Positions 9,834 through 60,485 of a DNA stretch of 64,000 bases are shown piece after piece (positions within the stretch are counted from its first letter, which is position 1; every line of letters begins with the position of its first letter). The notes below the pieces were generated by a model. That model searched no databases. It saw only the letters and a list, made by a program, of their open reading frames with translations, and was not told the DNA's origin. The position numbers and the translations under genes were made by a program. Where the stretch lies: positions 144,007 to 208,006 of the forward strand of contig JAFVUD010000005.1 in the NCBI GenBank assembly GCA_017502865.1, in the 5' to 3' direction. The stretch is from Alphaproteobacteria bacterium. Its GTDB lineage: Bacteria > Pseudomonadota > Alphaproteobacteria > Rs-D84.

Positions 9834-9866
9834 CAAAAAAAAATCCCGCACTTGCGGGATTTTTTA
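9834..9866. terminator. bidirectional terminator between the OMP gene and prfA
   Basis: A-run, ATCCCGC-ACTT-GCGGGAT, T-run. Confidence 0.8.
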
Positions 9867-31084: not shown

Positions 31085-31107
31085 GACAAAAAAAACATCA
31101 AAAAAAA

Positions 31108-31136
31108 ATACCGCATCAACTGCGGTATTTTTGTTT
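31108..31136 (+). terminator. terminator after the HTH gene
   Basis: ATACCGCA-TCAAC-TGCGGTAT followed by TTTTGTTT. Confidence 0.8.
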
Positions 31137-31405: not shown

Positions 31406-31501
31406 AACGAACCACATTATAACAACATTTTTTTGAAATGCAACAATTTCTGTGAATTTTTATGCTTGTTTGATTTTATTAAAAAAACTATCATATAACA
31501 T

Positions 31502-32443
31502 ATGGGAAAAAAACTATCATATTTCGGGATTTTATTTTTATCCGCAACTGCGGCGGGGACTGCATTTGCCGCAACCCGCGCATCCCAATATATCAAGCCT
31601 GATACATACAATTACATGTATCCATACATGAATAATCAAATGCGGGTTGATTTGAATCCTGGCATAACACCATCCCAATCTACAAATCCAATGGACATTG
31701 TTGTTCGCACAGAACAATTGTCAACCGAACGCCGTGTTGTTCCACGTGCACGCAAATCAACTACCGCCCGTGCCGCAACAAACACATCTGCAAAAACATC
31801 TAATAATTCGAATCGGCGTGTTGTGGCCCGTCGTGGAAAAAACACAAACGCAAACACAATTGCAACCGTTAACAGATATCGCAACGATGCATCATACACA
31901 AACCGGACCAGTGCAAACGCCACGGGTGCCACCCAGTTGGCGACACAAACATGGACATCGTCACGGTGCCTGGCGGATTACAGTGCATGCATGGACAATT
32001 ATTGCGAACGTGAAAATACTGCATACAACCGCTGTTATTGCAGTGCAAAACTGTCACAAATTGATTCCACGTATCAGCCTGCTATTGATAAATTAATCAA
32101 ACAAATCATTTCGCTGAAAAACACCAACACATGGACCGATGCCGAAATGAATGAATACTGGATGGAAAAGATTGGCAATTACGTTGGCGACAACAGTTGG
32201 GTTAATCTGGAAAATGCGTTAAACATTGACTGGGCCGGCACAGAAAGCCGTGTTCGCGGTCAATATGCATTTACAACTGGCCACGATTATTGCATGCAAC
32301 ACCTTCAGGGTTGCTTTTACATGGCATCGAATCTGCGCGATGCATACCGTTCTGAAATCGCACGTGATTGCGGTTCATACGAACAATCATTACAAAGAAT
32401 TAAAAACGCCGCAGAAAGCATAGTAGAGAGTTATAATGACTAA
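31502..32443 (+). CDS. secreted Thr/Arg-rich (RRVV[AP]R) and Cys-rich protein, family member 2
   Basis: Signal peptide, ERRVVPRARKS...NRRVVARRGKN, then SSRCLADYSACMDNYCERENTAYNRCYCSAKL. The stop overlaps the next gene by 8 nt. Confidence 0.7.
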   Translation: MGKKLSYFGILFLSATAAGTAFAATRASQYIKPDTYNYMYPYMNNQMRVDLNPGITPSQSTNPMDIVVRTEQLSTERRVVPRARKSTTARAATNTSAKTSNNSNRRVVARRGKNTNANTIATVNRYRNDASYTNRTSANATGATQLATQTWTSSRCLADYSACMDNYCERENTAYNRCYCSAKLSQIDSTYQPAIDKLIKQIISLKNTNTWTDAEMNEYWMEKIGNYVGDNSWVNLENALNIDWAGTESRVRGQYAFTTGHDYCMQHLQGCFYMASNLRDAYRSEIARDCGSYEQSLQRIKNAAESIVESYND

Positions 32444-41462: not shown

Positions 41463-41520
41463 ATTCCCACCTTTCTTTATGATAACCACTGTACTAAATC
41501 ATACGAAATCTACACAAGCA

Positions 41521-42942: not shown

Positions 42943-45027
42943 TTACTTCCAGTTATCTGGGATATTCGCATAGTCTTTTAATCCCGTTGCGCCGTTATAT
43001 GTATTCGCATCCCCAGATGGTGTGAACACTTCATACAAGAATTTATCAGCCGTCGTAAATGTACCATCTTCATTTTCGGTCACAACCGTCATCTTGGCAG
43101 AATCACTGGCCAATTTGGTTGCATTGTTAAATGTATTACTGAACATTCCCGACACCCAATTACCCGTAATATTGCCAAATATAGGATGCCCACTGGTACC
43201 GGTTGCCGCATCATAACCAATATTTATCAGACCCGTACTGTCAGCAAATGTGCTATTAAACATATTCTGTGCTGGTTCGCCCGAAATTCCCGCAAACAAT
43301 CCCTTTGGAATATTTTTAATATTCCATGTTGTACTGAATGTGCTACTGAACATATTTTTAGCTGGTGCCCCAACAATCCCTGCAAACAAACCTTCTGGCA
43401 AATCACCTACATTATTCCAATGGAATGTTCCACTAAACATCCCCTCGGCCGGTTCACCACGAATCCCCGCAAACAATTTCGCTGGCACAGTATTCACACC
43501 AGAATCCTGGAATGTACCCTGGAACATATATTCCAACGGGCGCCCCTCAATCCCACGGACATAATTGCCATTGTCATCATATTCTGTGAACAGATTTTCT
43601 GGAATATTATTCCCCATTCCCCCGGTCTGACAGAACGTATACGCAAATGCACGTCCCATATTATAATGCCATGTTATACCCGAAAACAAATCTGCTGGAA
43701 TGGGTCCACCCAATCTGCGGCACTGCTGGAAAGTACCTTCGAACATCCCATATGCCCCTGGCCCCTTAATCCCAGCAAACAGTCCACTTGGCAACTTCCC
43801 TTGAATTCCCGAAAAACCAAATGTTCCATGGAACATCTTGTGTGCAGGTGCGCCTTCGATACCCGCAAACAATTCCGCCGGAATCGAGCCAGTCAGTCTA
43901 GTATGCTGACTCCAACAACTACCATCTGGTCTATCATCTGGTGCAGACAAACAGGCAAAAGTAGAATGGAACATCATTGGTTTTGGTGCCCCCTTGATGC
44001 CCGCAAAGAAATCTTTATCCAACGGTCCAATTAAATTACGTGCAGAATCAAATGTCCCATAGAACAAACCTGTTGTTGGTGCACCACTAATCTTTGCAAA
44101 CAATTTTGGTGGTATCTGCCCCGATAAACTGTCGCAATTTCTAAATGTATGCATAAACATACCTGTTGTCGGGCGGCCGCTGATACCCGCAAAGAAATCT
44201 TCTGGAATCGCCCCATCCAATTCATAACAACCATCAAACATTTCACGGAACATATATGCCTTGTCCGCTTGGCCTGTCAATCCGGTCAAGAAACCATCTG
44301 GAATTGGACCAATCAAATTCTTGCACCCTTTACAGAAACCATAAAAGCTGGGTTGACTGCCATCGGCCAATGTTGAAAAAACCGCACCCAATGAATTATA
44401 AATTTTATACAGGTTTTCTGGCGTGCCGATTTTAATAGATGGAATTACCCCACTAACTTCATCCGCCATCAGTGTAACGGCCCCTTCGACATAGCCAGCA
44501 CCACCGGTTGAATTATATTCAGTTGGTGTACCCGTTAATTTAATATAGTGTGCTTCGGCCGTATCATATGTATGTGAATATGTGACCTGGTCTGTGGTAT
44601 CCTGGGTAAATGTTTCGTTGGTACCATCACCCCATTTAATAGTAAATGTACCCTTGGCTGCGATTTTAATTTCAAAATATGTTGTATCGGTTGTTGTACG
44701 GAATGTCAAACCACGCACATCAATCAAATCAACAACTGCTTTATCCGTTGCCTCCTTATCCGCCGCCAGCATAGTTGCCAACGGATCTTCGGCATAGTCA
44801 CTGATATCAATACTGTTCACGGTCCAGTTTGTTTCATCCATCGCATGCAGCAGATATTTCATATTTGCCGCAGCCATGGTACTGCTGACCTCGTCATTAT
44901 ATGGTAAAAAGAATCCCCATTCGGCCTGAATAGCCTTGTGAATATAATCCAGGTTTGCGACCACTGCGGAATCGGCCGTCGCCACCACACCGCACGACAC
45001 CATCAACGCAAACAACAATTTTTTCAT
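42943..45027 (-). CDS. secreted PKD-like + 30-aa-repeat family protein (694 aa)
   Basis: Signal peptide, VANLDYIHKAI...ANMKYLLHAMDETN head, IKWGDG...YSHTY domain, LFAGI.G.P...MF..TF repeats, and C-terminus KFLYEVF...IPDNWK. Confidence 0.85.
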   Translation of the reverse strand: MKKLLFALMVSCGVVATADSAVVANLDYIHKAIQAEWGFFLPYNDEVSSTMAAANMKYLLHAMDETNWTVNSIDISDYAEDPLATMLAADKEATDKAVVDLIDVRGLTFRTTTDTTYFEIKIAAKGTFTIKWGDGTNETFTQDTTDQVTYSHTYDTAEAHYIKLTGTPTEYNSTGGAGYVEGAVTLMADEVSGVIPSIKIGTPENLYKIYNSLGAVFSTLADGSQPSFYGFCKGCKNLIGPIPDGFLTGLTGQADKAYMFREMFDGCYELDGAIPEDFFAGISGRPTTGMFMHTFRNCDSLSGQIPPKLFAKISGAPTTGLFYGTFDSARNLIGPLDKDFFAGIKGAPKPMMFHSTFACLSAPDDRPDGSCWSQHTRLTGSIPAELFAGIEGAPAHKMFHGTFGFSGIQGKLPSGLFAGIKGPGAYGMFEGTFQQCRRLGGPIPADLFSGITWHYNMGRAFAYTFCQTGGMGNNIPENLFTEYDDNGNYVRGIEGRPLEYMFQGTFQDSGVNTVPAKLFAGIRGEPAEGMFSGTFHWNNVGDLPEGLFAGIVGAPAKNMFSSTFSTTWNIKNIPKGLFAGISGEPAQNMFNSTFADSTGLINIGYDAATGTSGHPIFGNITGNWVSGMFSNTFNNATKLASDSAKMTVVTENEDGTFTTADKFLYEVFTPSGDANTYNGATGLKDYANIPDNWK

Positions 45028-45041
45028 TACAAAATCCTCTG

Positions 45042-45287
45042 CTATTCTTCTACATGTGCCACAGATTTTGGCAATGGTTGGGTTGCCACATTTAACGATC
45101 CTGTCACGTCGTACGTACCGGCCATGGTCTGATTGGCATTTTCGGAAACACTGACCTTGTCTTCATCAACATATTTACGTGTATTCGCATCCACTTCATC
45201 TACATAGTTTTGTGATGGAATATTCGGTGCCGCAATCGCCGCCCCTGACATCAACGCCAACACTGAAAAAACAAGGATTTTTTGCAT
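45042..45287 (-). CDS. small secreted protein, EYV-head / VxTxPLP-tail family
   Basis: MQKILVFSVLALMSGAAIAAPNIPSQNYVDEV...NQTMAGTYDVTGSLNVATQPLP. Lies 14 nt upstream of 42943-45027. Confidence 0.6.
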   Translation of the reverse strand: MQKILVFSVLALMSGAAIAAPNIPSQNYVDEVDANTRKYVDEDKVSVSENANQTMAGTYDVTGSLNVATQPLPKSVAHVEE

Positions 45288-45351
45288 TTTTCTTTCTCCT
45301 AACACACTATTATTGATAATAATTGTATCATAAAACACCCCGCCCCGCAAA

Positions 45352-45375
45352 TAAAAAACCGCCATATTGGCGGTC
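45352..45375 (-). terminator. terminator after 45381-47483
   Basis: Same sequence as 42914-42937. Confidence 0.8.
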
Positions 45376-45380
45376 TTTTG

Positions 45381-47483
45381 TTATTTCCACAATTCTGGGA
45401 TATTCGCATAGTCTGTTAATCCCGTTGCACCGTTATATGTATTTGCATCCCCAGATGGTGTGAACACTTCATACAAATACTTTATCGCCGAAGACGTCGT
45501 TCCATCTTCATTTTCAGTTATAACCGTCATCTTGGCAGAATCACTGGCCAATTTGGTTGCGTTACTAAACGTATTGCTGAACATTCCCGACACCCAACTC
45601 CCCGTAATATTACCAAATATTGGATGCCCACTGGTACCGGTTGCCGCATCATAACCAATATCTACCAACGATTTATTATTCGAAAACGTGCCATTAAACA
45701 TATTCTTGGCCGCTGGTCCAGAAATCTTGGCAAACAACCCCTTTGGAATTTTTGTTGTGCTTGACCAAGCATCACCGGCACTAAATGTACCACTGAACAT
45801 AGACTCTGCCGGTTCCCCTTCGATACCATCAAAGAACCCTTCGGGAATATCACCAACACTATTCCAGTGGAACGTGTTGGCAAACATAGCTTTGGCCGGT
45901 TTTCCACGAATACCTGCGAACAATTTCGCTGGCAAATTACTTGCACCACTATCCGTCCATGTACCATTGAACATTTCTGCGGACGGTGCCCCCTCTATCC
46001 CACGGACATAATTACCGTCTTCGTCATATTCTGTGAACAGGTTTTCTGGAATATTTCCGCCCGCCCATGTCTGACAGAACGTCAACGCAAACGCACGTGA
46101 CATATCCGGCGACCATGTTATCCCTGCAAAGAAATCTTCGGGAATTTGTCCTCCCATACCACGGGCCTGTTGGAATGTGGCTTCAAACATACCGGGCGCC
46201 CCAGGTCCCTTGATGCCTGCAAACAATCCTGCTGGATACCCACCTGTATGCCCCGAAAATGCAAATGTAGAATGGAACATTTTGTACGCAGGGGCCCCTT
46301 CAATTTTACCAAACAATTTTGCTGGAATTGGGTTTTTCATCGACATTTTTGACCAACATTCACCATCTGGCAAATTAACACATCCAAATGTCCCCAGGAA
46401 CATCATCGGTTTTGGTGCACCACCAATATTTGCAAACAACTGGTCCGACAAAGCACCCGTCAACCCACGTGCCCCGTTAAATGTTTCATAGAACAATGCC
46501 AATGTAACATCACCGTTCAAACCACCAAACACGTCGGCCGGAATCCCACCCGTCAATGATTTACAGTTATAAAATGTCTGCATAAACTGGGCAGTTGTTG
46601 GACGACCTGTTATGCCCGCAAACATACCTGCTGGGATTTCACCATTTAACTTATAACAATTCAAGAACATACGACGAAATTGGTACGCTTTATCCGATTC
46701 GCCCGTAATCCCAGCCAACAAATTTGCTGGAATCGGCCCAACCAGGTTCGTACATCCTTCACAAAATGTATTAAAGCTTGGCTGACTGCCATCAGCCAAC
46801 GTTGGGAAAACCGAACCCAACGAATTATAAATCTTATACAAATTGGCTGGTGTAGCAATTTTAATAGTTGGCGTCGCCCCACTAACTTCACCTAAACTTT
46901 CATCTACACCACCATCTGAATATTGAACAATAATATCTCCGCCGGTCGAATTATACTCGGTCGCCTTGCCTAACAATTTGATATAGTGTGCTTCGGCCTT
47001 ATCATACGTATGCGAATACGTTTTTTGTTCTGTGGTATCGTGGGTAAAAGTTTCATTAACGCCGTCGCCCCATTTAATTGTAAATGTACCCTTGGCTGCG
47101 ATTTTAATTGAAAATTCCGTTGTATCAGTCGTCGTACGGAATGTTAAACCACGCACATCAATCAGGTCAACAACTGCGACATCTGTCGCATTGGTGTCTG
47201 CGGCACGCATTGTCGCCAATGGATCTTCGGCATAGTCACTGATGTCTTCACTGTTCACGGTCCAGTTTGTTTCGTCCATCGCATGCAACAGATATTTCAT
47301 ATTTGCCGCCGCCATTGTACTGCGAACCTCTTCATTCCATGGCAAAAAGAATCCCCACTCGGCCTGGATTGCGTTATGAATATATTCCAAATTTGCGATT
47401 TTGCCGGACCAAGCGGCCGAAATCACCATAAAACAAGACAAAAAAGCGACACATAACTTTTTAATCACGCTAAAATCCCCCAT
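45381..47483 (-). CDS. secreted PKD-like + 30-aa-repeat family protein (700 aa), tandem paralog of 42943-45027
   Basis: Same architecture. N- and C-terminal ~150 aa are nearly identical to the neighbour and the middle has diverged. C-terminus is ...IPELWK. Confidence 0.85.
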   Translation of the reverse strand: MGDFSVIKKLCVAFLSCFMVISAAWSGKIANLEYIHNAIQAEWGFFLPWNEEVRSTMAAANMKYLLHAMDETNWTVNSEDISDYAEDPLATMRAADTNATDVAVVDLIDVRGLTFRTTTDTTEFSIKIAAKGTFTIKWGDGVNETFTHDTTEQKTYSHTYDKAEAHYIKLLGKATEYNSTGGDIIVQYSDGGVDESLGEVSGATPTIKIATPANLYKIYNSLGSVFPTLADGSQPSFNTFCEGCTNLVGPIPANLLAGITGESDKAYQFRRMFLNCYKLNGEIPAGMFAGITGRPTTAQFMQTFYNCKSLTGGIPADVFGGLNGDVTLALFYETFNGARGLTGALSDQLFANIGGAPKPMMFLGTFGCVNLPDGECWSKMSMKNPIPAKLFGKIEGAPAYKMFHSTFAFSGHTGGYPAGLFAGIKGPGAPGMFEATFQQARGMGGQIPEDFFAGITWSPDMSRAFALTFCQTWAGGNIPENLFTEYDEDGNYVRGIEGAPSAEMFNGTWTDSGASNLPAKLFAGIRGKPAKAMFANTFHWNSVGDIPEGFFDGIEGEPAESMFSGTFSAGDAWSSTTKIPKGLFAKISGPAAKNMFNGTFSNNKSLVDIGYDAATGTSGHPIFGNITGSWVSGMFSNTFSNATKLASDSAKMTVITENEDGTTSSAIKYLYEVFTPSGDANTYNGATGLTDYANIPELWK

Positions 47484-47489
47484 TGTTAA

Positions 47490-47711
47490 TTATTCTGCGG
47501 CAGTATTTGCAACAGATGTTGGCAATGGCTGTGTTGGCACATCAAAAGTGCCCGTCACAGTATATGTTCCTGCCATTGTCTGGTTGGCTGATGCCGATGT
47601 ATCAACCTTGGTCGCAATAGATTCTTCTACATATTGCGTACCTGCCAAATCTGCCCATGCAGCCGGCATAAAACAGCACATAAACAACGCAAAAAACAAT
47701 GTATTTTTCAT
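47490..47711 (-). CDS. small secreted protein, EYV-head / VPTxPLP-tail family
   Basis: MKNTLFFALFMCCFMPAAWADLAGTQYVEESI...NQTMAGTYTVTGTFDVPTQPLP. Lies 6 nt upstream of 45381-47483. Confidence 0.6.
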   Translation of the reverse strand: MKNTLFFALFMCCFMPAAWADLAGTQYVEESIATKVDTSASANQTMAGTYTVTGTFDVPTQPLPTSVANTAAE

Positions 47712-47880
47712 TTTTCCTCCAACAAAATAAATACTTCCTGTCACCGTATATTGTACAATAAAACTCAATCATTAACAAGGGCAATTTTTCGTCACATTCC
47801 CACTTAAATATTTCTTGCAATTTGATATTAATGTTGCTCAAATACAAATATATAAAATTAAACACAAAAGGAAGCGAAAA

Positions 47881-48333
47881 ATGGCAGGCAGTATTAATAA
47901 AGTGACATTGGTCGGCAACATTGGCGGCGATCCCCAGGTTCGCAACATGCCCAGCGGTCAAAAGGTTGTAAATTTCAACCTGGCAACATCCGAACGTTGG
48001 CGTGACCGTGCAACCGGCGAAATGAAAGAACAAACCGAATGGCATCGTATTGTTATCTTTAACCCAAATTTGGCAGATGTTGCCGAACGCATGTTGCAGA
48101 AAGGCACAAAATTATACATCGAAGGTTCATTAAAAACCCGCAAATGGCAAAATCAACAGGGCGTTGACGTTTACACAACCGAAGTTGTATTGAACCCATT
48201 CGCCGGTCAAATGGTAATCTTGTCCGGGTCCAAGGGTGCCGGTGACAGCGAATATAACGCCGCCCCAACACCCGCATCGGCCCCACGTGAAGAAATTTCC
48301 GTTGCCGACATCAACGACGATATTCCATTCTAA
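47881..48333 (+). CDS. ssb: single-stranded DNA-binding protein
   Basis: [21 protein letters not shown]...[11 protein letters not shown]-fold and acidic C-terminal tip DDIPF. A terminator follows. Confidence 0.9.
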
Positions 48334-48355
48334 AAAGAAAAATATATCACACAAA

Positions 48356-48380
48356 AACCGCCATTTCGGCGGTTTTTTTT
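48356..48380 (+). terminator. terminator after ssb
   Basis: AACCGCC-ATTTC-GGCGGTT followed by T8. Confidence 0.85.
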
Positions 48381-48482
48381 CTGCCGACACAATCCCCCCA
48401 GGTCACAATTCCCTGTTCGCCCCATTTACCTGGGTTCCACGGTCAAGCCGTGGAATGACAAAGATTGATAAATTTCGAAATT

Positions 48483-48778
48483 AAATTAGAACGATTTAGA
48501 TGTGGAACGGTCCCGGCAACGTAGTGCACAAACCGCTACATGAGTTGTCGGGACCGCCCAACCCCTTGCCTGTTAAAAATAAATTAGAATGATTTAGATG
48601 TGGAACGGTCCCGGCAACGTAGTGTACAAACGCTACATGAGTTGTCGGGCCACCCAACCCCTTGCCTGTTAAAAATAAATTAGAATGATTTAGATGTGGA
48701 ACGGTCCCGGCAACGTAGTGTACAAACGCTACATGAGTTGTCGGGACCGCCCACAGATGAATTATTATAATTTATTTT
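48483..48778 (+). repeat. tandem array A: three ~97-nt hairpin-containing repeat units
   Basis: Units start at 48483, 48581 and 48677. The conserved hairpin is CCCGGCAAC-GTAGTG-TACAAA-CGCTAC-ATGA-GTTGTCGGG. The last unit has a distinct AT-rich tail. Confidence 0.9.
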
Positions 48779-51700
48779 TTAGAAGCGGTAAGAACCTGAG
48801 ACTTTAATATTATGCAACTGGATGGCATCGTTGTATTGATATCTGTAATCAACACCAATTTGAATGCCGGTTGCGGAAATCAGTTCAAAACCACCACCAA
48901 TATTTGCCCACAATGGATCAATATCCAATGCATAGTCGGTGAACGAATGGGCCGGACCAAATTTATATTGAACCTGGTCTGGGGCACCCAGAACATCATA
49001 TTCGACACCAATCGATGCATATGGTCTGATTTGGAACCATGCTGTTGGATAGATGCGTTTCTGGGCCGTTAATGTGTACCCAGGGGTCAACATCAAATAG
49101 CCATCTGATTCCATATTCATGTAATCGCCACTGCCGGCGGTTTCATCAACACTGAAACCAAAATTATAACCAACACGTGCATACAGATTTCCAACGATAT
49201 ACTGGTTCAACCAATCGTGCATCAACCCCCATTCAGATGTCAATGCCAACGCCATACCATCACCATCGATTGTATCCATGAAATTCATGTTTCTGTCTGT
49301 ATCTAACATATGGATATCCAAGAACGCATTTCCATACGCACGCACAGAATTAGTCAATGTTTTAGCCAAATAACCGCCCAGGCCGATATTTGTATCTGTG
49401 ACGGACACAGAAACATTTCCTTGTTCTGTGATGGCACCATAACTTAAATCCATAGAATCTGAATTATCGCTGGACATATGTGAAACACGACCTGTCAACC
49501 CCAGAATCAGTGTTTCAGATTCCTGCCAGTCAAATCCACCGGCAACACTGAAACGATTTCCACCAACACGTTTGTTATCTGTCACATTCTGGCGGAACAT
49601 ACCATAGTCAACATCAACCCATGCTTTTTTCAAACTGCGGTTTCTGTTCCAGATAAATTCATCCATCATGCGATCTTCGAAATCACGGAACGATGTATGT
49701 TCATTCAACATAACTGCACCCGCAATTTGTTCGATTTCACGTGGCTGAACCAATCTGCTGAATCGTGCCAATGGTGCACCTTCGGCATTGGCAACATAGT
49801 GTTCCATACGATTGTACAATTCATTTGCCAATTTAGACATATCTGTCCCTTCGAACAACAATGGAATCACTTCAATTGGCGTACTGTTAAAGAATCCCTG
49901 ATTAACCAATTGACCATCCAACAGATCGTCCAACGCACCGGCCGCCATATATTCACCATCTGTATGATCTGGTTCACGGCCAACAATTGGCTGGATACGC
50001 ATATTTTCAATCAAAACAGGGCCACCAAAGCGTGGATCAAACACGACATACAAACTGTCATTTTCACCATTTGCATCCGCATCACGAACCGAGATATACG
50101 CCGGCAATTCTTCGCCCGATTTATTATTCGCATCAATCGCATCCAGATAGTTAAAGCATTTTGAACCATCTGCATTACAGAACATAACTTCCAGATTGCG
50201 AACCTTGGCCAATGCATCAAATTCTTCGATACCATCTTTGGCGTTTAACAACCAAATCGCAGTACCCTGGTCAACGGCATCAAATATATTAATACCGATT
50301 TGTGAATCCGCCAACTGAACTTCTTTGTTACCCAAATTCAGCCCAGAATCATATACTTTACCCGATATAAATTTGCCATTAACCGAAATCATTGGTTCTG
50401 CATCGGCTGCATTTGTGATATCACCCAGTGTATCATCTTCGGCCAGGCTGACGGTTGCCCAATAATTCTTGGCACTGGAATTCATTGTGGTACCATCTGC
50501 ATATTTCAAGATTGCAACATTCAATCGGCTGTTTTCATCAAATGTATAATTACCACCAATACTCATTTGTTCCAGACCGATAAAGTCAACCCCACCTGAA
50601 ACATCACCACCAACCGACACATCCATCCAGTTTGCATATGGCGACGCAACAAATGCTAAATCAACTGCATCTATGCTGCCAGAAACATCAATATCACTGC
50701 TGTTCACAACCATTGTCCCAGATTTCTGGTCAATCGCCCCAACATTCATATTAGATGTATTTATAACATAATCAGATGCCGCCACATTTACATCACGACT
50801 GGCCAATGTACCTGCATAATTTTGATATAATGTACCATCGGTTGTAAATGGTGTTGCCAAATCCAATCCAGCCCCAGACAACTGAATCATACCATCGTTC
50901 ATGGCCAATGAATTCATTGTTATAAACCCATTACCCGAACCAATATACAACGTACCATTATTCGCAACATCTGCGAAATCAGCAGATTCCTGGGCAAATA
51001 TTGCCAAAGAACCGCTGTTTTCCAAATTCTGCGACGCAAACGATTTCGCATTTACCATCACGCCGGCACCATCTGCCACAGAAACATTACCAACAACATT
51101 GAATAAATCTGTAATGTTATATGAAACCGTATTTTCATCTGCGACAAAATTACCACCAATGTTCATACTGGCCGCCTGAACACTTGATTCATCGGCTGTC
51201 AAATTCAGCATACCATTTTTAGCAGTACCCTGGTTCAAATCGCCTGCAACGCTAATATCGCCACCGACGATTGTGCGTTCCGCATCAATATTTGCCCCAC
51301 CCCCAGACACTGTCAAACCATATGAAACATCGAATTGTTTTGCATCAACCGACACTAAACCACCCGTTGATGTAATTGAATTCGCAGACACATTGTTGGC
51401 ATTTGCTGTAAACGCACCACTGTTTGTCACATTTTCAACAGACACCGCATTTACATTCCCCTGGCCTAACAAAGTTGTCAAACCTGTATTTGTAATATCC
51501 TGGGCGGTTATCATTGTACCCGATGCATACAGCGATCCACCAACCGTTGTATCATTTTTGATATCAACCAATTTATTCGCCACCAGGTTCAATTCACCAC
51601 CTGCATCAATCAAGCCAGAAACATTGATATTATTCGCAGATTTCAATGTTAACCCGTCACGTGTTGCCGCCATAACTGTAATACCACCGGCAACATCAAT

Positions 51701-54088
51701 ATCCTGATTTGCCCCGGTTGATTGCAATGTCATACCGTCTGTACCAATTATCGACAGCCCCCGTGTTGGATTCAAACTGCTGTCATACCAGATACCATTT
51801 TTAATATTAATACCGCCCTGGTCTGCAACAACAAATTGACCATACAGATTAATCAAACCATCTTGTTCAACCAGCGATGCAACATTTGCCCCCGCGTTAT
51901 AGATTTCAACAGTACCACCATTTTGTGCAACAACATCACCTGTCACATCCAGTGTCACATCCTCTACCTCTGGAATATACATATCATAGGTTGTCGGCGC
52001 ACCCGCATCTGGAATTTTATATATAAACGCAACCTGCCCCTGGCCCGATGCTACAACATCACCACCCACGGTCATACCGGCTGCAGAAAATCCCATTTTT
52101 CGAACATTACTGGCATCTGTTGCGGTAATATCACCATCAACATTGATTGTATTATCAGATGCCAAAACAAAACCTTGGACACCCTTGGCTGCGACATTTA
52201 CATCACCTGCCGCCCCTGTTGTTGCAGATGTTGCTGTGATATTACCAGCAATTTCAACACTGCCTGCAACATTAACCGTGTTCGTATTGCCGCCAATATT
52301 CAGCACACCACCCGTCACAGTCAAATCACCCGAACCTGTTAAATAACGGTCGTCTTCTGCGATTGCAAACTGACCGATTAAGGCATCAATGTTTGTTGTA
52401 CCACCCTGAACATCCAGACCACCCATTGTGATTGGCCCTTCGCCTAAATCTGAACCCTTGATGGTGGTAGAACCATTTTTATTTATAACATTCCCTAAAA
52501 TTGCGATATTACGCCCTTCGATTAATGTAGAACCACTGTTATTGTTCACATTTCCCACAACCCCAACGGATCCATATTCATCTGTATATGCCACGACACG
52601 CAAATTACCGCCATCATTTACCAGATTACCCCCCGACACCGTTGGTTCAGACGCATTATCCTCTTGCAGCATTTGCCCCAACATAATCGTTTCTGCATTC
52701 AATGTTGTATTTCCAGAATTCGAAACATTTTCATCGACATACAAATACGAAGACGCCGTCAAATGTGCGGTTGCATCTTGGGCTGTGGTCAAAGATTTAA
52801 TTGCAATTTCACCATACACACTGTTGCTGTCGTTATATGGCTGAATTGAACCCGCAACGGCATCATTATTCACTTCGGCCACCATATTCAGTGTACCACC
52901 CGATGCATAAACGTCTTGGGCCCAGATATCACCAGCCTTGATATTCATGATTGCATTTTTATTATTTGCCCCATTTTGAATATCCAAAACTATCAGTTCG
53001 CCACGTGTCACATTCAAATCGAACTGTTTTGCATCGTTCGACATCATAGCAAACACTTGGTCTTCCGTAGTATTCCCCCAATAAATCTGCCCTGTGGTCA
53101 AACTGAATGTATTATCAGTCCCCATTGTGCTTAAATCCACACCATTGGCGAAATAAGTTTCCCCAGAAACATTGATATTCACATTACCGCCATTGACAAA
53201 AGACGCATTATTATCGTCACCACCATTTAATTGCAGCGATCCTGTATTAATAACTAACGTCCCATTTGCCGAATCGTTTTTGACTGTGCCCCCAACATTA
53301 ATCGAACTGTTGACGGCATTAAATGTCAAACTGTCACCTGAATTTTCCAGATTACCATCAATATAAACAATCGATCCATTGTTAACATTGATTTCCATAT
53401 CACCGGCATTATTCTGGATATTCCCCACCGTTTCATCATCGATACTGCCGTCCAACGCTTCTTCCTGTGGGCCACGCATATCCAACGAACCCGCATTAAC
53501 AACAAACTTACCCGTACTGTCGTTTTGTAATTTTTCTGCTTCCAGCGTATCTGTCGCAGTGATTGTTGTATTACCTGTACCTGTTGCCGCCAAATCTTGA
53601 ACTGAGATATATTCCGCCCCCAGTGTCAAATCCCCATTACTGGTCACATGCTGTGCATACAACCCCACAATTCCATCATCAATCGTCAGCGTCCCCAGGT
53701 TTTCGATTGCACCAAAATACGCTTCTGAAATCTGTGCATTGTCTGTTGCATTTGCATGAATGCCCAACGTACGACCATTTGCCACCGTCAGTGCCCCCAG
53801 CACTTCGATATTACCGCTGCTTAAAATCGTGTACGAAGAATTCGTATCTGGCCCGACATAGACCCAGCCATCTGGACTGGCCGCAGGAATTTGTGCCCCA
53901 ACAGACAATCCGTGTGTTACCGTCATACCACCGGTCCCCACAACAAAACCACTACCACCGGTAAAATGATATACGTCTGTCGTCGCATTCAACCCATCAA
54001 ATGTTGCATTATTTGGATAAACTAACGGTTCGGCCACCGCACCAAAAGGCGCCAAGCAGCACATCAGTGACATAATTTTCTTGAACAT
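48779..54088 (-). CDS. large autotransporter (beta-helical passenger plus C-terminal barrel)
   Basis: 1769 aa from the ATG at 54088 (MFKKIMSLMCCLAPFGAVA). The passenger is G/N/T/V-rich and repetitive. The C-terminal ~280 aa show alternating beta-strands ending in ...SGSYRF. Confidence 0.8.
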   Translation of the reverse strand: MFKKIMSLMCCLAPFGAVAEPLVYPNNATFDGLNATTDVYHFTGGSGFVVGTGGMTVTHGLSVGAQIPAASPDGWVYVGPDTNSSYTILSSGNIEVLGALTVANGRTLGIHANATDNAQISEAYFGAIENLGTLTIDDGIVGLYAQHVTSNGDLTLGAEYISVQDLAATGTGNTTITATDTLEAEKLQNDSTGKFVVNAGSLDMRGPQEEALDGSIDDETVGNIQNNAGDMEINVNNGSIVYIDGNLENSGDSLTFNAVNSSINVGGTVKNDSANGTLVINTGSLQLNGGDDNNASFVNGGNVNINVSGETYFANGVDLSTMGTDNTFSLTTGQIYWGNTTEDQVFAMMSNDAKQFDLNVTRGELIVLDIQNGANNKNAIMNIKAGDIWAQDVYASGGTLNMVAEVNNDAVAGSIQPYNDSNSVYGEIAIKSLTTAQDATAHLTASSYLYVDENVSNSGNTTLNAETIMLGQMLQEDNASEPTVSGGNLVNDGGNLRVVAYTDEYGSVGVVGNVNNNSGSTLIEGRNIAILGNVINKNGSTTIKGSDLGEGPITMGGLDVQGGTTNIDALIGQFAIAEDDRYLTGSGDLTVTGGVLNIGGNTNTVNVAGSVEIAGNITATSATTGAAGDVNVAAKGVQGFVLASDNTINVDGDITATDASNVRKMGFSAAGMTVGGDVVASGQGQVAFIYKIPDAGAPTTYDMYIPEVEDVTLDVTGDVVAQNGGTVEIYNAGANVASLVEQDGLINLYGQFVVADQGGINIKNGIWYDSSLNPTRGLSIIGTDGMTLQSTGANQDIDVAGGITVMAATRDGLTLKSANNINVSGLIDAGGELNLVANKLVDIKNDTTVGGSLYASGTMITAQDITNTGLTTLLGQGNVNAVSVENVTNSGAFTANANNVSANSITSTGGLVSVDAKQFDVSYGLTVSGGGANIDAERTIVGGDISVAGDLNQGTAKNGMLNLTADESSVQAASMNIGGNFVADENTVSYNITDLFNVVGNVSVADGAGVMVNAKSFASQNLENSGSLAIFAQESADFADVANNGTLYIGSGNGFITMNSLAMNDGMIQLSGAGLDLATPFTTDGTLYQNYAGTLASRDVNVAASDYVINTSNMNVGAIDQKSGTMVVNSSDIDVSGSIDAVDLAFVASPYANWMDVSVGGDVSGGVDFIGLEQMSIGGNYTFDENSRLNVAILKYADGTTMNSSAKNYWATVSLAEDDTLGDITNAADAEPMISVNGKFISGKVYDSGLNLGNKEVQLADSQIGINIFDAVDQGTAIWLLNAKDGIEEFDALAKVRNLEVMFCNADGSKCFNYLDAIDANNKSGEELPAYISVRDADANGENDSLYVVFDPRFGGPVLIENMRIQPIVGREPDHTDGEYMAAGALDDLLDGQLVNQGFFNSTPIEVIPLLFEGTDMSKLANELYNRMEHYVANAEGAPLARFSRLVQPREIEQIAGAVMLNEHTSFRDFEDRMMDEFIWNRNRSLKKAWVDVDYGMFRQNVTDNKRVGGNRFSVAGGFDWQESETLILGLTGRVSHMSSDNSDSMDLSYGAITEQGNVSVSVTDTNIGLGGYLAKTLTNSVRAYGNAFLDIHMLDTDRNMNFMDTIDGDGMALALTSEWGLMHDWLNQYIVGNLYARVGYNFGFSVDETAGSGDYMNMESDGYLMLTPGYTLTAQKRIYPTAWFQIRPYASIGVEYDVLGAPDQVQYKFGPAHSFTDYALDIDPLWANIGGGFELISATGIQIGVDYRYQYNDAIQLHNIKVSGSYRF

Positions 54089-54199
54089 TTTTTTCTTTTT
54101 CTGTTTTATTTCCAATCCGATTGTGTTTATATTATACCGCAAAATGAATTTAATGCAAAGGTAAACTGTGCATAAACTCATTATTATTTATCAAAGTAA

Positions 54200-55474
<1,275 letters not shown>

Positions 55475-55495
55475 TACAGTGCGAAGTGTGAACGG

Positions 55496-55520
55496 GGGGG
55501 GCAAACATTTGCCCCCTTTT
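55496..55520 (+). terminator. terminator after eno
   Basis: GGGGGCAA-ACA-TTGCCCCC followed by TTTT. Confidence 0.8.
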
Positions 55521-55533
55521 CTATTAAACAAAC

Positions 55534-55740
55534 ATGATTGAATTGGGCGAAATTTTATTGGTGGCAAAATATGCAATCTGCATATATATTTTGCTGATAA
55601 TAATTTGTGCACCCGCATGGCTGGCCCGCCAAACCAAAAAGAACAAGCAAGACATGATTTTGGTCCGCCTGGGGTCCTGGCTGTTTTTATGGTCTGGTGT
55701 TGGCTGGCTGTGGGCCCTGTATTGGTCGGTCAAGAAATAA
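55534..55740 (+). CDS. small two-TM membrane protein (superinfection-immunity Imm-like pattern)
   Basis: 68 aa with two hydrophobic helices and a C-terminal GVGWLWALYWSV motif. Flanked by terminators. Confidence 0.45.
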   Translation: MIELGEILLVAKYAICIYILLIIICAPAWLARQTKKNKQDMILVRLGSWLFLWSGVGWLWALYWSVKK

Positions 55741-55767
55741 AAACCGCCCATCTGGGCGGTAATTTTT
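55741..55767. terminator. bidirectional terminator
   Basis: AAACCGCCCA-TC-TGGGCGGT followed by AATTTTT. An A-run lies on the other side. Confidence 0.7.
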
Positions 55768-56599
55768 ATTCAGTCGGTCCATCTTCGTACAGCCCCGTCA
55801 ACACCGTTGACCGGTACCATTCCACCCCGGCGAAATAGTCTGCACAGTTTCCTTCACAGTTATCATCACATCCTGCCCAACTGGAACTGAATCTGAACAC
55901 CCACGGTGTAAAATCCAATCCCGGCACATTTTTCACACGACAATAGCACACATTGCCATAATATGCTTCACTGCGGTCGGCATTATCCAAATCCTGTTTT
56001 CGTGGAATATATATCGCCCCACCGGTACTGGTAAAATCGCTTTCTATATATGTTGTACACAACGCATCGCCTTCGACATAGCCAAAATCATAATACGCCC
56101 GCCATGTACCAATTGTTTCACGGTTTGGCGAATGTGCCGAATACCCCATTGTCTGGGTCCATTCATATCCATCGGCACCATTACCGCCCGATCCCATTGC
56201 CGCCCGCAAATCATCGGCGGTTGCCGGCCCGACCCAGTTTGGCCGCACCGTAATATCAGACGTAAAATTATAAACAAACGAAACCGCAGTATTTGTACCG
56301 TATGTTGCAACCCGATTATCACCAACATAAATTGCGATACCACCCCATGCCAAACCATCGGGTGCCGTACAAATCAAAGAACTTAAACTGCCATCAAAAC
56401 GATCTGCCGTTGCCAACCGTTCCAACGTCACAGTTTCCCCATATGTCACGGTTTGTGATTCCGGCAGTGTTTTTCCATCCGCCACCGTTCCCGCACCACA
56501 GTCATATGTAATTGTATATGTTTCATTAACACAGTCTGTCACCGCATACAACGGCAAAACCGCCATAATTCCAACCAAAGACATTAAAACTTTCCGCAT
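55766..56599 (-). CDS. secreted Cys-rich protein with one DCG-type B-repeat-like domain (operon gene 3)
   Basis: Signal peptide MRKVLMSLVGIMAVLPLYA, then YTITYDCGAGTVADGKTLPESQTVTYGETVT, and a Cys-rich C-terminus. Confidence 0.65.
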   Translation of the reverse strand: MRKVLMSLVGIMAVLPLYAVTDCVNETYTITYDCGAGTVADGKTLPESQTVTYGETVTLERLATADRFDGSLSSLICTAPDGLAWGGIAIYVGDNRVATYGTNTAVSFVYNFTSDITVRPNWVGPATADDLRAAMGSGGNGADGYEWTQTMGYSAHSPNRETIGTWRAYYDFGYVEGDALCTTYIESDFTSTGGAIYIPRKQDLDNADRSEAYYGNVCYCRVKNVPGLDFTPWVFRFSSSWAGCDDNCEGNCADYFAGVEWYRSTVLTGLYEDGPTE

Positions 56600-56616
56600 C
56601 ATAACGCCCCCATCCA

Positions 56617-57399
56617 TTAGCACGGTCTGCCACACCCAGAAACCATAGACCTACGAATTGGCATACCTGTTTGTGCATCCATCATTGATTTTCCACATGT
56701 TGTTGCACATTCTGCCGAACATGCGTCAACATCATCATATACCTGTGTTTGTACCCACACCGGACCACAACCAGAACATTGCTCATTCAAACAATAACAA
56801 ACAGGACCCGTATCCATGTAATCAGCAATCGAATCACCACTTGTCAAACCAAATGTTATTCCTAAATTTGCCCCAACATTCGAAACCGTTGGCACACCAC
56901 AATACGATACACCACTTGCGGTTCCAGACCATCCAACAAAACTCCATTCTCCTAAAACACCATTTGTAGCAGTATATTCTATACCACCTGGCACTATATC
57001 CTCAGACATCGTACCAACCCATCGTGGTTGAATTGTAATATCACGGGTATATTTATACACAAACGATTGGGCCGTTTTTGATAACACATCGGCAACAATC
57101 TGTTCGCCATACCCCCATTCATCCACAACACGTGGTTCGGCAACAATTTGATACCCCGCCCATTTTTCATAACCATTATTCGGACCAACGCATTGTGATT
57201 TTATCAATTGCGGTGTGACGGTTTGGTTATATTTTACCGGTGTTGGTTCGGGCAATGTTTGACCATCTGCCAATGTACCATTACCACACGAATAATGTAT
57301 ATAATACACCGTATCATCGGTTGCACATGTTAACGCATTTGCATTAAACGCAAATAATGCAACACCCCATACCACAAACAATATTTTATATAATTTCAT
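56617..57399 (-). CDS. secreted Cys-rich protein with one B-repeat-like domain (operon gene 2)
   Basis: Signal peptide MKLYKILFVVWGVALFAFNANA, then YYIHYSCGNGTLADGQTLPEPTPVKYNQTVT. Paralogous to gene 3. Confidence 0.65.
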   Translation of the reverse strand: MKLYKILFVVWGVALFAFNANALTCATDDTVYYIHYSCGNGTLADGQTLPEPTPVKYNQTVTPQLIKSQCVGPNNGYEKWAGYQIVAEPRVVDEWGYGEQIVADVLSKTAQSFVYKYTRDITIQPRWVGTMSEDIVPGGIEYTATNGVLGEWSFVGWSGTASGVSYCGVPTVSNVGANLGITFGLTSGDSIADYMDTGPVCYCLNEQCSGCGPVWVQTQVYDDVDACSAECATTCGKSMMDAQTGMPIRRSMVSGCGRPC

Positions 57400-57410
57400 T
57401 TCTTCACCAC

Positions 57411-58868
57411 CTACATTGGACAAACCCAATTTGCCGACAAAATCGCATTATAGCCCCGCTTATAAACCGCACTTTCTCCCTCATCAATAGTCATCGATGC
57501 ACCATACCTGTCATAACCATCCATAACATATAGCTTCCACCCTTGACGCGACACACTACACTCCCACTCTGGCGGTGTTGTACACAAACTGGAATCCGGG
57601 CTAATGACATCACCATAATGTACCTGTATATAGGCATCTGTTTCATCGCCACCATCACCACAATCATACGCAATTATATATGTTTCTGGGGTCCAAATGG
57701 CATGCAATGTTGTGTCCGCTTTCCATGAATATCGGATTGCAGTATATGGATCAATAACCGTTTCCGTATCACCAACCGTCCATCCCGAAACATAATGACC
57801 AGCACGAGAACATCCTCTGCCATAATTCGCCGGACTGAATAATTCATTATAACCAACCGTTACGACAAGATCTTCATCCCAACCGTATTTATCGCCATCG
57901 GCATCGGTCCCACAATCAAACGTCAGTTGATATTCCCCTTCGTCAACGGTGCGATCCCATTCCCACACCGCACGCAGCACGACATTATGTGGCCACTGGA
58001 ACTTGGCACTCTGTCCTGCTGGAATAAACAGTCCCAAATCCTGGTTCGCCATACTGTAAACATCGTATCCCTTGAACACAGCACCCGCCGGACGTTGACA
58101 TTGACCCTCGCTAGGGGCACCAGGGGTAAAGTTCGAACCATATCTGGTCGCATTTTTTACATTCATTGGCCCCTTAACCCACGGATATTCACAGTCATTA
58201 CACAAACGAACCCAATACATCAATCGCTGGGACCAAACGGCGGTGGCGGTCATATCACTGGCCCATTTCCAAACCGGTGCCGATTTGTGATTATATGTTG
58301 TTCCATCAATTTTCCACCCGGAAATATAGTACCCATCACGATAGCATGTACCACCGGTATGCCCAACACCAAATGCCGAACCATATCGAATCGTCTGGGA
58401 TTCGGGCGGTGTACCATAATCACCACCGCAATCATAATTCAGTGTAAACGACGGTGCACAAATCTTGTGCGTGGTTGGTGCAACATAATATGCCGTACCA
58501 TCTACATCAACATTCAATGTTCCCGCCTGGCTGCCCGATGGCATATCGGCATAGCAAACCATATCATTATATTTTGTGGCTAATTTACGTGTGGTGGATG
58601 CAGTCTTGAACAAATCAATACGTGTGCCATTTTCTGCAACAATTGCACGCACCCCCGCATCGCACAGATCTGTACATTCACCATTTAAATTTTCCATCTG
58701 GGTAACCGCCGGCCCGGTATATGGCACCATGCCCGTTGGACACACCGATTCCGCATATGCCAAACCAACAATAAACAATCCCGCGACGGCTAAACTACCG
58801 CTGGGGGGGGGGGGGGGTAAAAACCGCAGAAATCCGGCACACTTGCCGTTATCACAACATTTTTTCAT
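57411..58868 (-). CDS. secreted Cys-rich protein with three Listeria-Bacteroides (InlB B)-repeat-like domains; C15 tract in 5' coding region (operon gene 1)
   Basis: FTLNYDCGGDYGTPPESQTIRYGSAF...GYYISGWKIDG, YQLTFDCGTDADGD...GHYVSGWTVGD, and YIIAYDCGDGGDETDAYIQVHYGDV...RQGWKL. The N-terminus reads MKKCCDNGKCAGFLRFLPPPPPSGSLAVAGLFIVGLAYA. Confidence 0.7.
   Translation of the reverse strand: MKKCCDNGKCAGFLRFLPPPPPSGSLAVAGLFIVGLAYAESVCPTGMVPYTGPAVTQMENLNGECTDLCDAGVRAIVAENGTRIDLFKTASTTRKLATKYNDMVCYADMPSGSQAGTLNVDVDGTAYYVAPTTHKICAPSFTLNYDCGGDYGTPPESQTIRYGSAFGVGHTGGTCYRDGYYISGWKIDGTTYNHKSAPVWKWASDMTATAVWSQRLMYWVRLCNDCEYPWVKGPMNVKNATRYGSNFTPGAPSEGQCQRPAGAVFKGYDVYSMANQDLGLFIPAGQSAKFQWPHNVVLRAVWEWDRTVDEGEYQLTFDCGTDADGDKYGWDEDLVVTVGYNELFSPANYGRGCSRAGHYVSGWTVGDTETVIDPYTAIRYSWKADTTLHAIWTPETYIIAYDCGDGGDETDAYIQVHYGDVISPDSSLCTTPPEWECSVSRQGWKLYVMDGYDRYGASMTIDEGESAVYKRGYNAILSANWVCPM
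58803..58817 (-). repeat. homopolymeric C15 tract (G15 on + strand) inside codons 18-22 of CDS 57411-58868
   Basis: Counted directly: 15 consecutive G at 58803-58817, translated as PPPPP. Confidence 0.95.
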
Positions 58869-58958
58869 GATTTTTGCGTCTTCCTTCTTTTTACCCTATT
58901 CTATCATAACACGAATTTATTCACAAGTACATTTTCCATATCTTTGCCAAACAAAAAT

Positions 58959-59255
58959 AAATTAGAATGATTTAGATGTGAAACGGTCCCGGCAACGTAG
59001 TGTACAAATCGCTACATGAGTTGTCGGGCCACCCACCCCCTTGCCTGTTAAAAATGAATTAGAATGATTTAGATAAAAGAAAATCGGGAATCGTAGTGTA
59101 CACGACGCTACATAAGATTCCCAGACAACCACACCCCCTTGCCTGTTAAAAATAAATTAGAATGATTTAGATGTGGAACGGTCCCGACAACGTAGTGTAC
59201 AAACGCTACATGAGTTGTCGGGACCGCCCACAGATGAATTATTATAATTTATTTT
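58959..59255 (+). repeat. tandem array B: three ~97-nt units of the same element
   Basis: Units start at 58959, 59056 and 59154. The third unit is 104/105 identical to the third unit of array A. The middle unit has a swapped outer stem. Confidence 0.9.
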
Positions 59256-59822
59256 TTATTCGTCGTCTGGAACTTCTTCCTCCTCCTCATCCTCTTCTTC
59301 AACGGCATTCAAATCAATTTCTTTTGGAATACCCAAAATATCTTCGATTTTGTCAGATGCAGAATCCAAATCCATTTTATGCAGAACTGCAAATTCCTGG
59401 GCCATACGTTCCAACGCACGCAAATATAATTGCCGGGCCGAAAATGTCATTGTATCTGCCGCTGTGCGACGTTGCAGGTCACGCACCACTTCGGCCAATT
59501 TCATTGGGTCACCCGAATTAATGTTTTCTTCGTACTGGGCGGCACGACGGGCCCAAATCATACGTTTTACACCGGCTTTACCCTTGGCTGATGCGATGGC
59601 CTCATCCATTTTTTTAGTTGTCGTCAACGGACGCAGCCCTGAAATTTCTGCACGTTCGATTGGCACACGCAATGTCATATGATTGCGTTCAAAATCGATA
59701 ACCAACATCTTTATTTTCTGGCCTGCGACGGTCTGTTCTTCGATTCGCAACAGTTTACCAACACCCTGGGTTGGATAAACGACATACTGTCCGGCTTTAA
59801 AATCTAACTTTTTACTTGGCAT
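59256..59822 (-). CDS. carD: CarD/CdnL family RNA-polymerase-binding transcription regulator
   Basis: FKAGQYVVYPTQGVGKLLRIEEQTVAGQKIKMLVIDFERNHMTLRVPIERAE, with an acidic C-terminal tail. Confidence 0.85.
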   Translation of the reverse strand: MPSKKLDFKAGQYVVYPTQGVGKLLRIEEQTVAGQKIKMLVIDFERNHMTLRVPIERAEISGLRPLTTTKKMDEAIASAKGKAGVKRMIWARRAAQYEENINSGDPMKLAEVVRDLQRRTAADTMTFSARQLYLRALERMAQEFAVLHKMDLDSASDKIEDILGIPKEIDLNAVEEEDEEEEEVPDDE

Positions 59823-59865
59823 ACTTACACTCTTTTACAGTTTTGCCATTCTCTCTGTCCCGGAC

Positions 59866-59893
59866 ATTATACCATAAAAAACACGAAAAACAA
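59866..59893 (-). promoter_or_regulatory. sigma70-like promoter for carD
   Basis: The minus strand reads TTGTTT-N16-TATAAT with an extended -10 TGG. It lies about 45 nt upstream of the ATG at 59822. Confidence 0.4.
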
Positions 59894-59939
59894 ATAAAGT
59901 TGACGAAAAAAATTTATGCACCCAAACGGGTGCATATAA

Positions 59940-60485
59940 TCAGCGGCCCAACTGGCGAATCTGCCCGGTTCGACGAATTGTCGATTTCCGCAGGGCTTCT
60001 GGATTTTCCTGGGGGATTGCACAAACCCATTCACCATCCTGCAAAATCGCTGTTTCGCCCGCCCCACATTCTGGCTTTTCCAGACGCCATGCAAAACAAC
60101 TGCCCTTTTGATATGACAAATATGTCGCATTATCGGCACCACCACGGGTATATGCACCATATTCTGGGTTCCATGCACCGGCGGCCACACCCGAACACCA
60201 TTTGCGTTCGCCCCAGCAAACTACACAGTTCCCATTGGCATCACACAATTCATTGGCAGACGGGGTTGCAACATAACCACTGGCTGGTGCATTACCAGTC
60301 CCCATGGCACGCCCTGTTTCTAAATCACGGCACCACAATTTTTGACATTCGTATGTATCAATACCATCTGTCTTTTTCACTTTTTCCAGAACATAGCCTT
60401 CGCCACATGAAAATTCTGGTTCAACAACACTAAACGCAGGCATTGCACACAACATGGCAAAAACAAAAATACAAACTCTCTTCAT
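59940..60485 (-). CDS. secreted Cys-rich hypothetical protein
   Basis: Signal peptide MKRVCIFVFAMLCAMPAFS. Roughly a dozen Cys in 181 aa. Confidence 0.5.
   Translation of the reverse strand: MKRVCIFVFAMLCAMPAFSVVEPEFSCGEGYVLEKVKKTDGIDTYECQKLWCRDLETGRAMGTGNAPASGYVATPSANELCDANGNCVVCWGERKWCSGVAAGAWNPEYGAYTRGGADNATYLSYQKGSCFAWRLEKPECGAGETAILQDGEWVCAIPQENPEALRKSTIRRTGQIRQLGR

Follow-up and report, generated by a model that had tools for sequence, protein, structure and literature searches.

A poly-C tract in the signal-peptide coding region of a B-repeat protein operon: a probable phase-variation switch in an uncultured gut alphaproteobacterium

In a few cultured pathogens, slipped-strand contingency loci are a textbook subject. 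The opa genes of Neisseria form a multi-copy family with a common 5′ region and mosaic recombining bodies; their CTTCT pentamers lie in the leader-peptide coding region, and the mature protein is independent of the number of repeats. In the Neisseria pilC genes the tract was reportedly placed by Jonsson and colleagues in 1991 in the part that codes for the signal peptide. We have analyzed a 64-kb stretch of DNA (64,000 nucleotides, here called the window) from a metagenome-assembled genome (MAG) of an alphaproteobacterium, in which a run of fifteen C nucleotides lies within the signal-peptide coding region of the gene that heads a three-gene operon. From the comparison of homologous loci set out below, we consider it likely that this C15 run acts as a slipped-strand translational phase-variation switch, that is a contingency locus, for that gene.

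Phase-variable poly-G/C tracts are counted as variable from a length of at least 9, with G9-20 in pilC, C9-13 in nalP and, for opa, 7-21 units of CTTCT, genic in position (PMC5953494). Campylobacter jejuni has intragenic poly-G contingency genes that serve as translational switches in genes for surface structures (PMC3068675). The window tract resembles those of pilC1 and pilC2 in being an in-frame G/C homopolymer close to the 5′ end of a gene whose product is exported and adhesion-related (predicted to be so here), where frameshifting would turn expression ON or OFF, and in its similar range of lengths between strains (PMC5953494). It differs in that the window gene codes for a B-repeat protein and not for PilC/PilY1, and heads a three-gene operon; the host is an uncultured gut alphaproteobacterium, and switching is here predicted from sequence comparison. 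With the poly-G genes of C. jejuni and with the autotransporter gene nalP of Neisseria the window gene shares an intragenic poly-G/C run of at least 9 (PMC3068675, PMC5953494); those loci are backed by measured switching rates and phenotypes, whereas the window locus is known from sequence. A literature search on homopolymer phase variation in Alphaproteobacteria found nothing relevant. The mechanism is already known; the lineage and the protein family are without an earlier report of phase variation in the literature searched.

The tract within the leader of gene 1

Gene 1 occupies 57411..58868 on the minus strand and encodes 485 amino acids. The C15 homopolymer, the putative hypermutable switch element, lies at 58803..58817 on the same strand and forms codons 18-22, with CCC five times giving PPPPP. 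The initial annotation had reported a G15 at this position on the plus strand, read on the coding strand as Pro5 between MKKCCDNGKCAGFLRFL and SGSLAVAGLFIVGLAYA of a 485-amino-acid open reading frame (ORF), and both the sequence and a census of runs bear this out. The signal-peptide coding region comprises codons 1-39 (58752..58868, minus strand). The tract lies between the charged n-region MKKCCDNGKCAGFLRFL and the hydrophobic core, or h-region, SGSLAVAGLFIVGLAYA of a Sec-type signal peptide, with a predicted signal peptidase I (SPase I) site between AYA and ES, and the complete leader reads MKKCCDNGKCAGFLRFL-PPPPP-SGSLAVAGLFIVGLAYA, followed after the predicted cleavage by ESVCPTG. A lipoprotein signal was rejected in favor of SPase I at this site, as there is no lipobox before Cys43 in the sequence. 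Residues 1-47 are disordered in the AlphaFold2 (AF2) model. Distant members of the family have signal peptides of 18-25 amino acids that end just before a conserved CP(D/T)G motif and contain no tract; the long leader bearing the tract is thus a derived feature of this subclade.

A single G8 (55494-55501) is the second longest G/C run in the window, and all others have a length of 6 or less. From the composition of the window about 2e-7 runs of G15 would be expected. The G8 had been described as the next longest run, which is correct among G/C runs; among all homopolymers it is exceeded by A9, the maximum for A/T runs, found at 9835 and 31100. It does lie in the eno terminator as claimed, where a hairpin stem GGGGGGGGCAAACATTTGCCCCC is followed by a run of T. 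An AT-rich intergenic stretch has a cluster of A8, A9, A7 and T7 runs (31088-31108 and 31428-31513), and no A/T homopolymers in the window are longer than these. The C15 exceeds the length of at least 9 at which poly-G/C runs are taken to be hypermutable (PMC5953494).

In the long ORFs of the window 7.5% of proline codons are CCC and 65% are CCA. The probability that five consecutive prolines should all be encoded by CCC is about 2e-6, and PPPPP is the sole case in these ORFs of a proline run longer than 2. As CCC is rare among the proline codons, the tract is maintained as a run of nucleotides rather than as a proline motif.

We simulated tract lengths from C10 to C19. A full-length product was obtained only at 12, 15 and 18, and at all other lengths the product was a peptide of 22-26 amino acids. 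This agrees with the earlier claim that gain or loss of one C would shift the frame. The tract is therefore inside the ORF and near its 5′ end, where, judging by the frame simulation, changes in unit number would alter expression.

We propose the following mechanism. Slipped-strand mispairing during replication would add or remove C nucleotides, slippage being the presumed cause of the length changes. Lengths of 3n (9, 12, 15, 18) would keep the frame set by the Shine-Dalgarno (SD) sequence and ATG joined to the body of the gene, and the extra or missing prolines would fall at the junction of the n- and h-regions, leaving the mature protein unchanged. Changes of length that preserve the frame should be neutral for the mature protein because the tract lies in a leader that is cleaved. 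At lengths of 3n+1 or 3n+2 translation would end 2-3 codons after the tract to give the peptide of 22-26 amino acids, and the rest of the gene would have no start codon supplying an export signal. With 1.4 kb left untranslated, genes 2 and 3, which are tightly packed, would probably be expressed less as well, either because coupling is lost or through Rho-dependent polarity; polarity is feasible because there is a rho gene in the window. We suppose that the change in length is reversible and frequent, and that it may confer a benefit such as evading recognition by host or phage.

The signals for initiation lie upstream of the tract. An SD-like AGGAAG at 58880..58885 (minus strand; sequence context AAGAAGGAAG) is located 11 nt before the ATG at 58868, and a sigma-70-like promoter of the form TTGTGA-17 nt-TAGAAT with an extended -10 TG is found at 58898..58926 on the same strand. 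The -35 and -10 boxes, the SD context AAGAAGGAA and also ATCATGAA are unchanged in ten loci, although the loci follow CarD, rpsB-tsf or lptC-OmpA and so stand in at least three genomic contexts. Candidate starts downstream of the tract comprise only TTG codons inside the h-region and ATG47, each without an SD sequence. A start after the tract would therefore yield a protein without the export signal, since the hydrophobic core and the AYA-E junction are encoded downstream of the tract. The initial annotation had raised initiation downstream of the tract as an alternative that would remove the switch; this is contradicted by the upstream promoter, SD sequence and ATG, which are invariant in the ten loci.

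Other functions for the leader were considered. No Rfam families were found in 48200-60000. A riboswitch or structured-leader role was rejected; the fold is no better than that of shuffled sequences (z = +0.41) and the consensus is essentially without covariation. A role for G15 as a G-quadruplex or recombination initiator was considered because the family is mosaic, and is unsupported: the blocks of homology between the window and the homologous locus L010 continue through the tract. A profile search with the leader alone, for a cassette on unrelated genes, gave nothing significant, the query being too short for a database of 5.8 billion sequences.

Tract length and reading frame in homologous loci

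The gene 1 protein has nine cluster representatives in a collection of 5.8 billion proteins, at 38-94% identity and all from metagenome assemblies, and the named family members are 'Alphaproteobacteria bacterium' MAGs. We compared the DNA of 14 loci (numbered L001 to L014), reading the tract from the assembly consensus sequences. The sampling of loci went through called proteins, which biases it towards ON alleles. An exact pattern for the conserved leader, AACGGCAANNGTGCCGGATTTCTGCGNNTTTT, had 0 matches in GTDB representative genomes and 0 in JGI metagenome contigs, and a search of the same two sets for loci with the protein profile gave no confirmed relatives.

The length of the tract varies widely. 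In the DNA it is C15 in the window, L001 and L002, C12 in L003, C9 in L006 and C8T in L004 and L005. Four alleles are out of frame with respect to the conserved ATG; these have C13 (L010 and L011), C10 (L014) and C15 placed behind an A6 leader (L012). The tract is interrupted in L013 (C8TCCTC6), and decayed to CTCCCC in L007 and to CCCCATCC in L008 and L009. Protein N-termini suggest further lengths of C11 (P0041), C14 (P0037), C17 (P0039 and P0047) and C13 (P0038). The C8 run of the eno terminator served as a control, and it varies only between C7 and C8 over the same loci.

In the out-of-frame alleles the ATG frame stops 2-3 codons past the tract, matching the simulation, and the body remains as an intact ORF of 437-446 amino acids. 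The proteins P0037 (C14), P0041 (C11) and P0045, from L012 (C15, OFF), have 437-amino-acid bodies with zero amino-acid differences, and the lengths of their contigs (5647, 5644 and 5648 nt) differ by exactly the difference in the tract. Over 439 amino acids there is no difference between the window allele P0010 (C15) and P0012, from an NCBI MAG, which is annotated from an internal TTG ('MAYAES...'); that protein call suggests a broken upstream frame. Similarly, the body of P0001 (C12) is that of the N-truncated P0018. The tract thus changes much faster than the surrounding sequence, because identical bodies carry differing tracts while the eno-terminator run stays at C7-C8. Hence the repeat number varies among close strains, out-of-frame states occur, and the gene is otherwise intact. 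Comparing tract lengths across strains was the check proposed at the outset; the differing lengths, the in-frame and out-of-frame states and the intact ORF downstream are as phase variation predicts, and the phase-variation reading is supported. The N-truncated or alternative-frame calls P0012 (MBR2482741.1), P0018, P0027 and P0045 probably reflect the phase of the tract, and not distinct genes.

If the out-of-frame alleles were decaying pseudogenes, the tract would be a mutational liability instead of an evolved switch. Decayed or interrupted tracts do occur, in L007, L008 and L013, and P0011 (MBQ7949378.1) has a frameshift within the body. We nevertheless regard decay as extremely improbable. 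The OFF bodies are intact, with zero substitutions relative to ON alleles; long pure tracts have been kept in several alleles and paralogs diverged to 46-94% identity; and the tract is located exactly where changes in length spare the mature protein.

Phase may also be affected by a second run. In L012 the leader has A6 (GGCAAAAAATGCC, 124-129), compared with A5 in L013 (GGCAAAAATGCC, 147-151); this run stands 27 nt before the tract. The 10 codons that lead into the tract are thereby read as KCRISAVFT in place of NAGFLRFL, and because of the one extra A the ON lengths in the L012 lineage become 3n+2 instead of 3n. The A5/A6 run is a possible second layer that resets which C-lengths are ON. The nucleotide sequence GTGCCGGATTTCTGCG beside the tract is unchanged in all 10 loci, even where the frames differ. 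Gene calls on the OFF alleles begin at a GTG in another frame (MITANVPDFCGFY, MITANVPDFCGFYPPPP..., MPDFCGFY...) or at an internal Met.

These calls bear on the alternative that the tract adjusts the amount of protein, with 'OFF' lengths still giving some exported product, from slipped transcripts or from other start codons. In the 36 nt that precede the tract all three frames are open and contain GTG codons, and full-length ORFs have been called from a GTG in an alternative frame (MITANVPDFCGFY..., MPDFCGFY...). One lineage makes productive use of the third frame, KCRISAVFT+Pn, through the change from A5 to A6, and GTGCCGGATTTCTGCG is invariant though read in different frames. RNA polymerase may also slip on C15. 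Against this, the alternative GTG codons have no SD sequence, the n-region MPDFCGFY has no positive charge, and the leader RNA lacks special structure (z = +0.41, with essentially no covariation). Transcriptional slippage is moreover best documented for runs of A/T. We think such residual expression unlikely as the principal explanation; it is not exclusive of a translational switch.

Some observations weigh against the switch. The spacing of 11 nt between SD sequence and ATG is rather long, and some leaky expression in the 'OFF' phases could arise at GTG codons that precede the tract in the two remaining frames. The ratio of ON to OFF among pure tracts is about 7:4, or 7:7 when the N-truncated calls are included, which is statistically indistinct from neutrality. 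Where contigs match at 100% over 3.7-7.5 kb, their tract length is also the same (C15 in the window, L001 and L002; C13 in L010 and L011), and the tract consensus is therefore not randomised between those assemblies; some of these assemblies may stem from the same reads. Lastly, short-read assembly is prone to err on long homopolymers, and a single OFF call of C13 or C15 may thus be wrong by one nucleotide. The C10 of L014 is less exposed to this objection.

A further alternative is that all the out-of-frame lengths are short-read errors and that the real tract drifts by threes, as a tolerated polymorphism of poly-proline length in a cleaved leader, with the gene always ON. Every OFF state does come from a metagenome assembly, identical contigs have the same tract length, and the DNA does show the in-frame lengths 9, 12 and 15. 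We judge this very unlikely. There are four independent OFF alleles, one with a short C10 that sequencing handles well, and C13 occurs in two assemblies from different pipelines. Further N-truncated calls have identical bodies (P0012, P0018, P0027). The exclusive use of the rare CCC points to selection on the DNA run and not on the prolines, and slippage on a homopolymer does not yield steps of 3 only. A slipped-strand translational switch therefore remains our preferred interpretation.

The gene 1 product and its genomic setting

No Pfam family, PF09479 and PF18998 included, was matched by the 485-amino-acid gene 1 protein at E <= 0.01. A profile built from the gene 1 family retrieves 1099 proteins, the distant ones being giant multi-repeat proteins, and of the multi-repeat matches that were sampled six out of six are Flg_new (Listeria-Bacteroides / InlB B-repeat), with E values from 1e-55 to 1e-127. 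The AF2 model has a mean pLDDT of 69, with 80-90 in the repeats, and Foldseek aligns it to the InlB B-repeat structure 2y5p with a probability of 0.98-0.99 and a TM score of about 0.65 on the target. The family profile and the fold comparison thus both lead to B-repeats. On this evidence from sequence profile and model, gene 1 is predicted to encode an exported, divergent InlB B-repeat (Flg_new-like) protein, in which a Cys-containing domain at the N-terminus is followed by approximately four divergent B-repeat domains. B-repeats are characteristic of surface and adhesion proteins. Bearing on a surface function, we observe a Sec-type signal peptide and a B-repeat fold in an organism that is diderm. 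The protein is like the Flg_new (PF09479) and InlB B-repeat surface proteins in that its profile retrieves the Flg_new multi-repeats and its model superimposes on 2y5p. It is unlike them in falling below Pfam significance, in its unique N-terminal domain and many cysteines, and in the two small paralogous partner genes carried by the operon.

Gene 2 (56617..57399, minus strand; 260 amino acids, signal peptide MKLYKILFVVWGVALFAFNANA) begins 11 nt past the stop codon of gene 1. After a gap of 14 nt it is followed by its paralog gene 3 (55766..56602, minus strand; 278 amino acids, signal peptide MMRKVLMSLVGIMAVLPLYA), and the two are 30% identical to each other. A bidirectional hairpin resembling an intrinsic terminator closes the operon (55743..55760, minus strand). 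As judged from the sequence, each of the three products carries a Sec-type signal sequence at its N-terminus, which makes the label of secreted-protein operon reasonable. A Pfam search of the three operon proteins and their neighbors gave CarD as the sole match. CarD lies upstream of the operon and eno downstream. A hydrophobic ORF of 68 amino acids (55534-55740, plus strand) is flanked by the eno terminator and by the bidirectional terminator, the latter shared with the operon.

Directly upstream of the promoter, as context outside the switch, is an intergenic repeat of about 97 nt that contains a hairpin, present in approximately three tandem copies (58937..59230, with no strand assigned). 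A second site with approximately three tandem copies is at 48478-48760, after the gene for a protein of 1800 amino acids. The unit has a perfect hairpin of 13 bp (CGGTCCCGACAAC/GTTGTCGGGACCG) and a motif ATCTAAATCATTCTAATT. It is also found before homologous operons, at 1-55 of L008 and in the first ~60 nt of L012-L014, and it coincides with the ends of contigs and with synteny breakpoints. No match to Rfam was found for the repeat, which from its sequence looks like a REP/MITE-like element.

The window is otherwise unremarkable chromosomal DNA; it carries leuS, prfA, hisS, tkt, uvrA, rho, ssb, eno and PFOR together with several very large proteins lacking Pfam matches. There are two giant ORFs, at 34650-41489 (2279 amino acids) and 48779-54181 (1800 amino acids), neither with a Pfam match; the 1800-amino-acid protein has the C-terminus ...VSGSYRF, like an outer-membrane β-barrel or autotransporter. 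An ORF of 349 amino acids at 8770-9819 matches the autotransporter β-domain. Tandem paralogous proteins of about 700 amino acids (42943-45027 and 45381-47483) have repeated 'LFAGI.G.P...MF..TF' motifs that are leucine-rich-repeat-like, and each is preceded by a secreted protein of ~90-107 amino acids (small ORFs 45042-45365 and 47490-47768). Neither these paralogs nor their small secreted proteins gave a Pfam match at 1e-5. The GC skew is uniform and strong, from -0.1 to -0.45 per 2-kb bin, with 17% G and 27% C on the plus strand, and 19 of the 26 ORFs of at least 250 amino acids are on the minus strand. As the skew never switches, a replication origin or terminus is absent from the window.

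Operon copies, mosaicism and significance

The operon can occur more than once in a genome. L010 has two copies about 4 kb apart, and the MAG IJ276 has two family members that by locus tag are about 20 genes apart. Between the window and L010, blocks of 95-98% identity alternate with segments that cannot be aligned. Compared with L008, eno is 98% identical and the operon is 77% identical or unalignable. The operon (55766-58868) is hypervariable between strains, in contrast to an identity of 97-98% for the eno and autotransporter-like genes on either side of it. Homology between the genomic contexts starts exactly at the -35 box, 58926/58927. Upstream of the promoter there is CarD in the window, and OmpA and an ORF of 52 amino acids in L010, with the break exactly at the -35 box.

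The locus is like opa in that operons of the window type occur in at least two copies per genome, and in that the homology between loci starts at the promoter. It differs in having a mononucleotide in place of a pentanucleotide repeat, and opa genes code for β-barrel outer-membrane proteins, which have another fold. We put forward tentatively, as a possibility on which we remain rather doubtful, that the tract is one instance of a modular cassette of promoter, SD sequence, long leader and poly-C that, within each genome, heads several three-gene B-repeat operons which are paralogous and recombine. This estimate covers operons at different chromosomal sites, with homology between the sites from exactly the -35 box. 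A multi-locus phasome is not established, because there is only one such tract in the 64-kb window. If the cassette reading is true, an uncultured commensal alphaproteobacterium of animal guts would possess exported proteins in a combinatorial repertoire, with phase variation and antigenic mosaicism together, and there would be a multi-locus phasome based on simple sequence repeats outside the classical pathogens.

Whether multi-locus phase variation is truly restricted to pathogens or reflects a bias in the databases is listed as an open question in a recent review (PMC11868660). The window locus bears on this question as a clear example, supported by the comparison of loci, from an uncultured alphaproteobacterium of the gut or rumen that is represented solely by MAGs. 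It also draws attention to an exported B-repeat family that was previously unannotated and is hypervariable. In practical terms, these operons can be flagged as likely targets of selection by host or phage, and annotators are warned that N-truncated or alternative-frame calls such as MBR2482741.1 are probably phase-OFF alleles.

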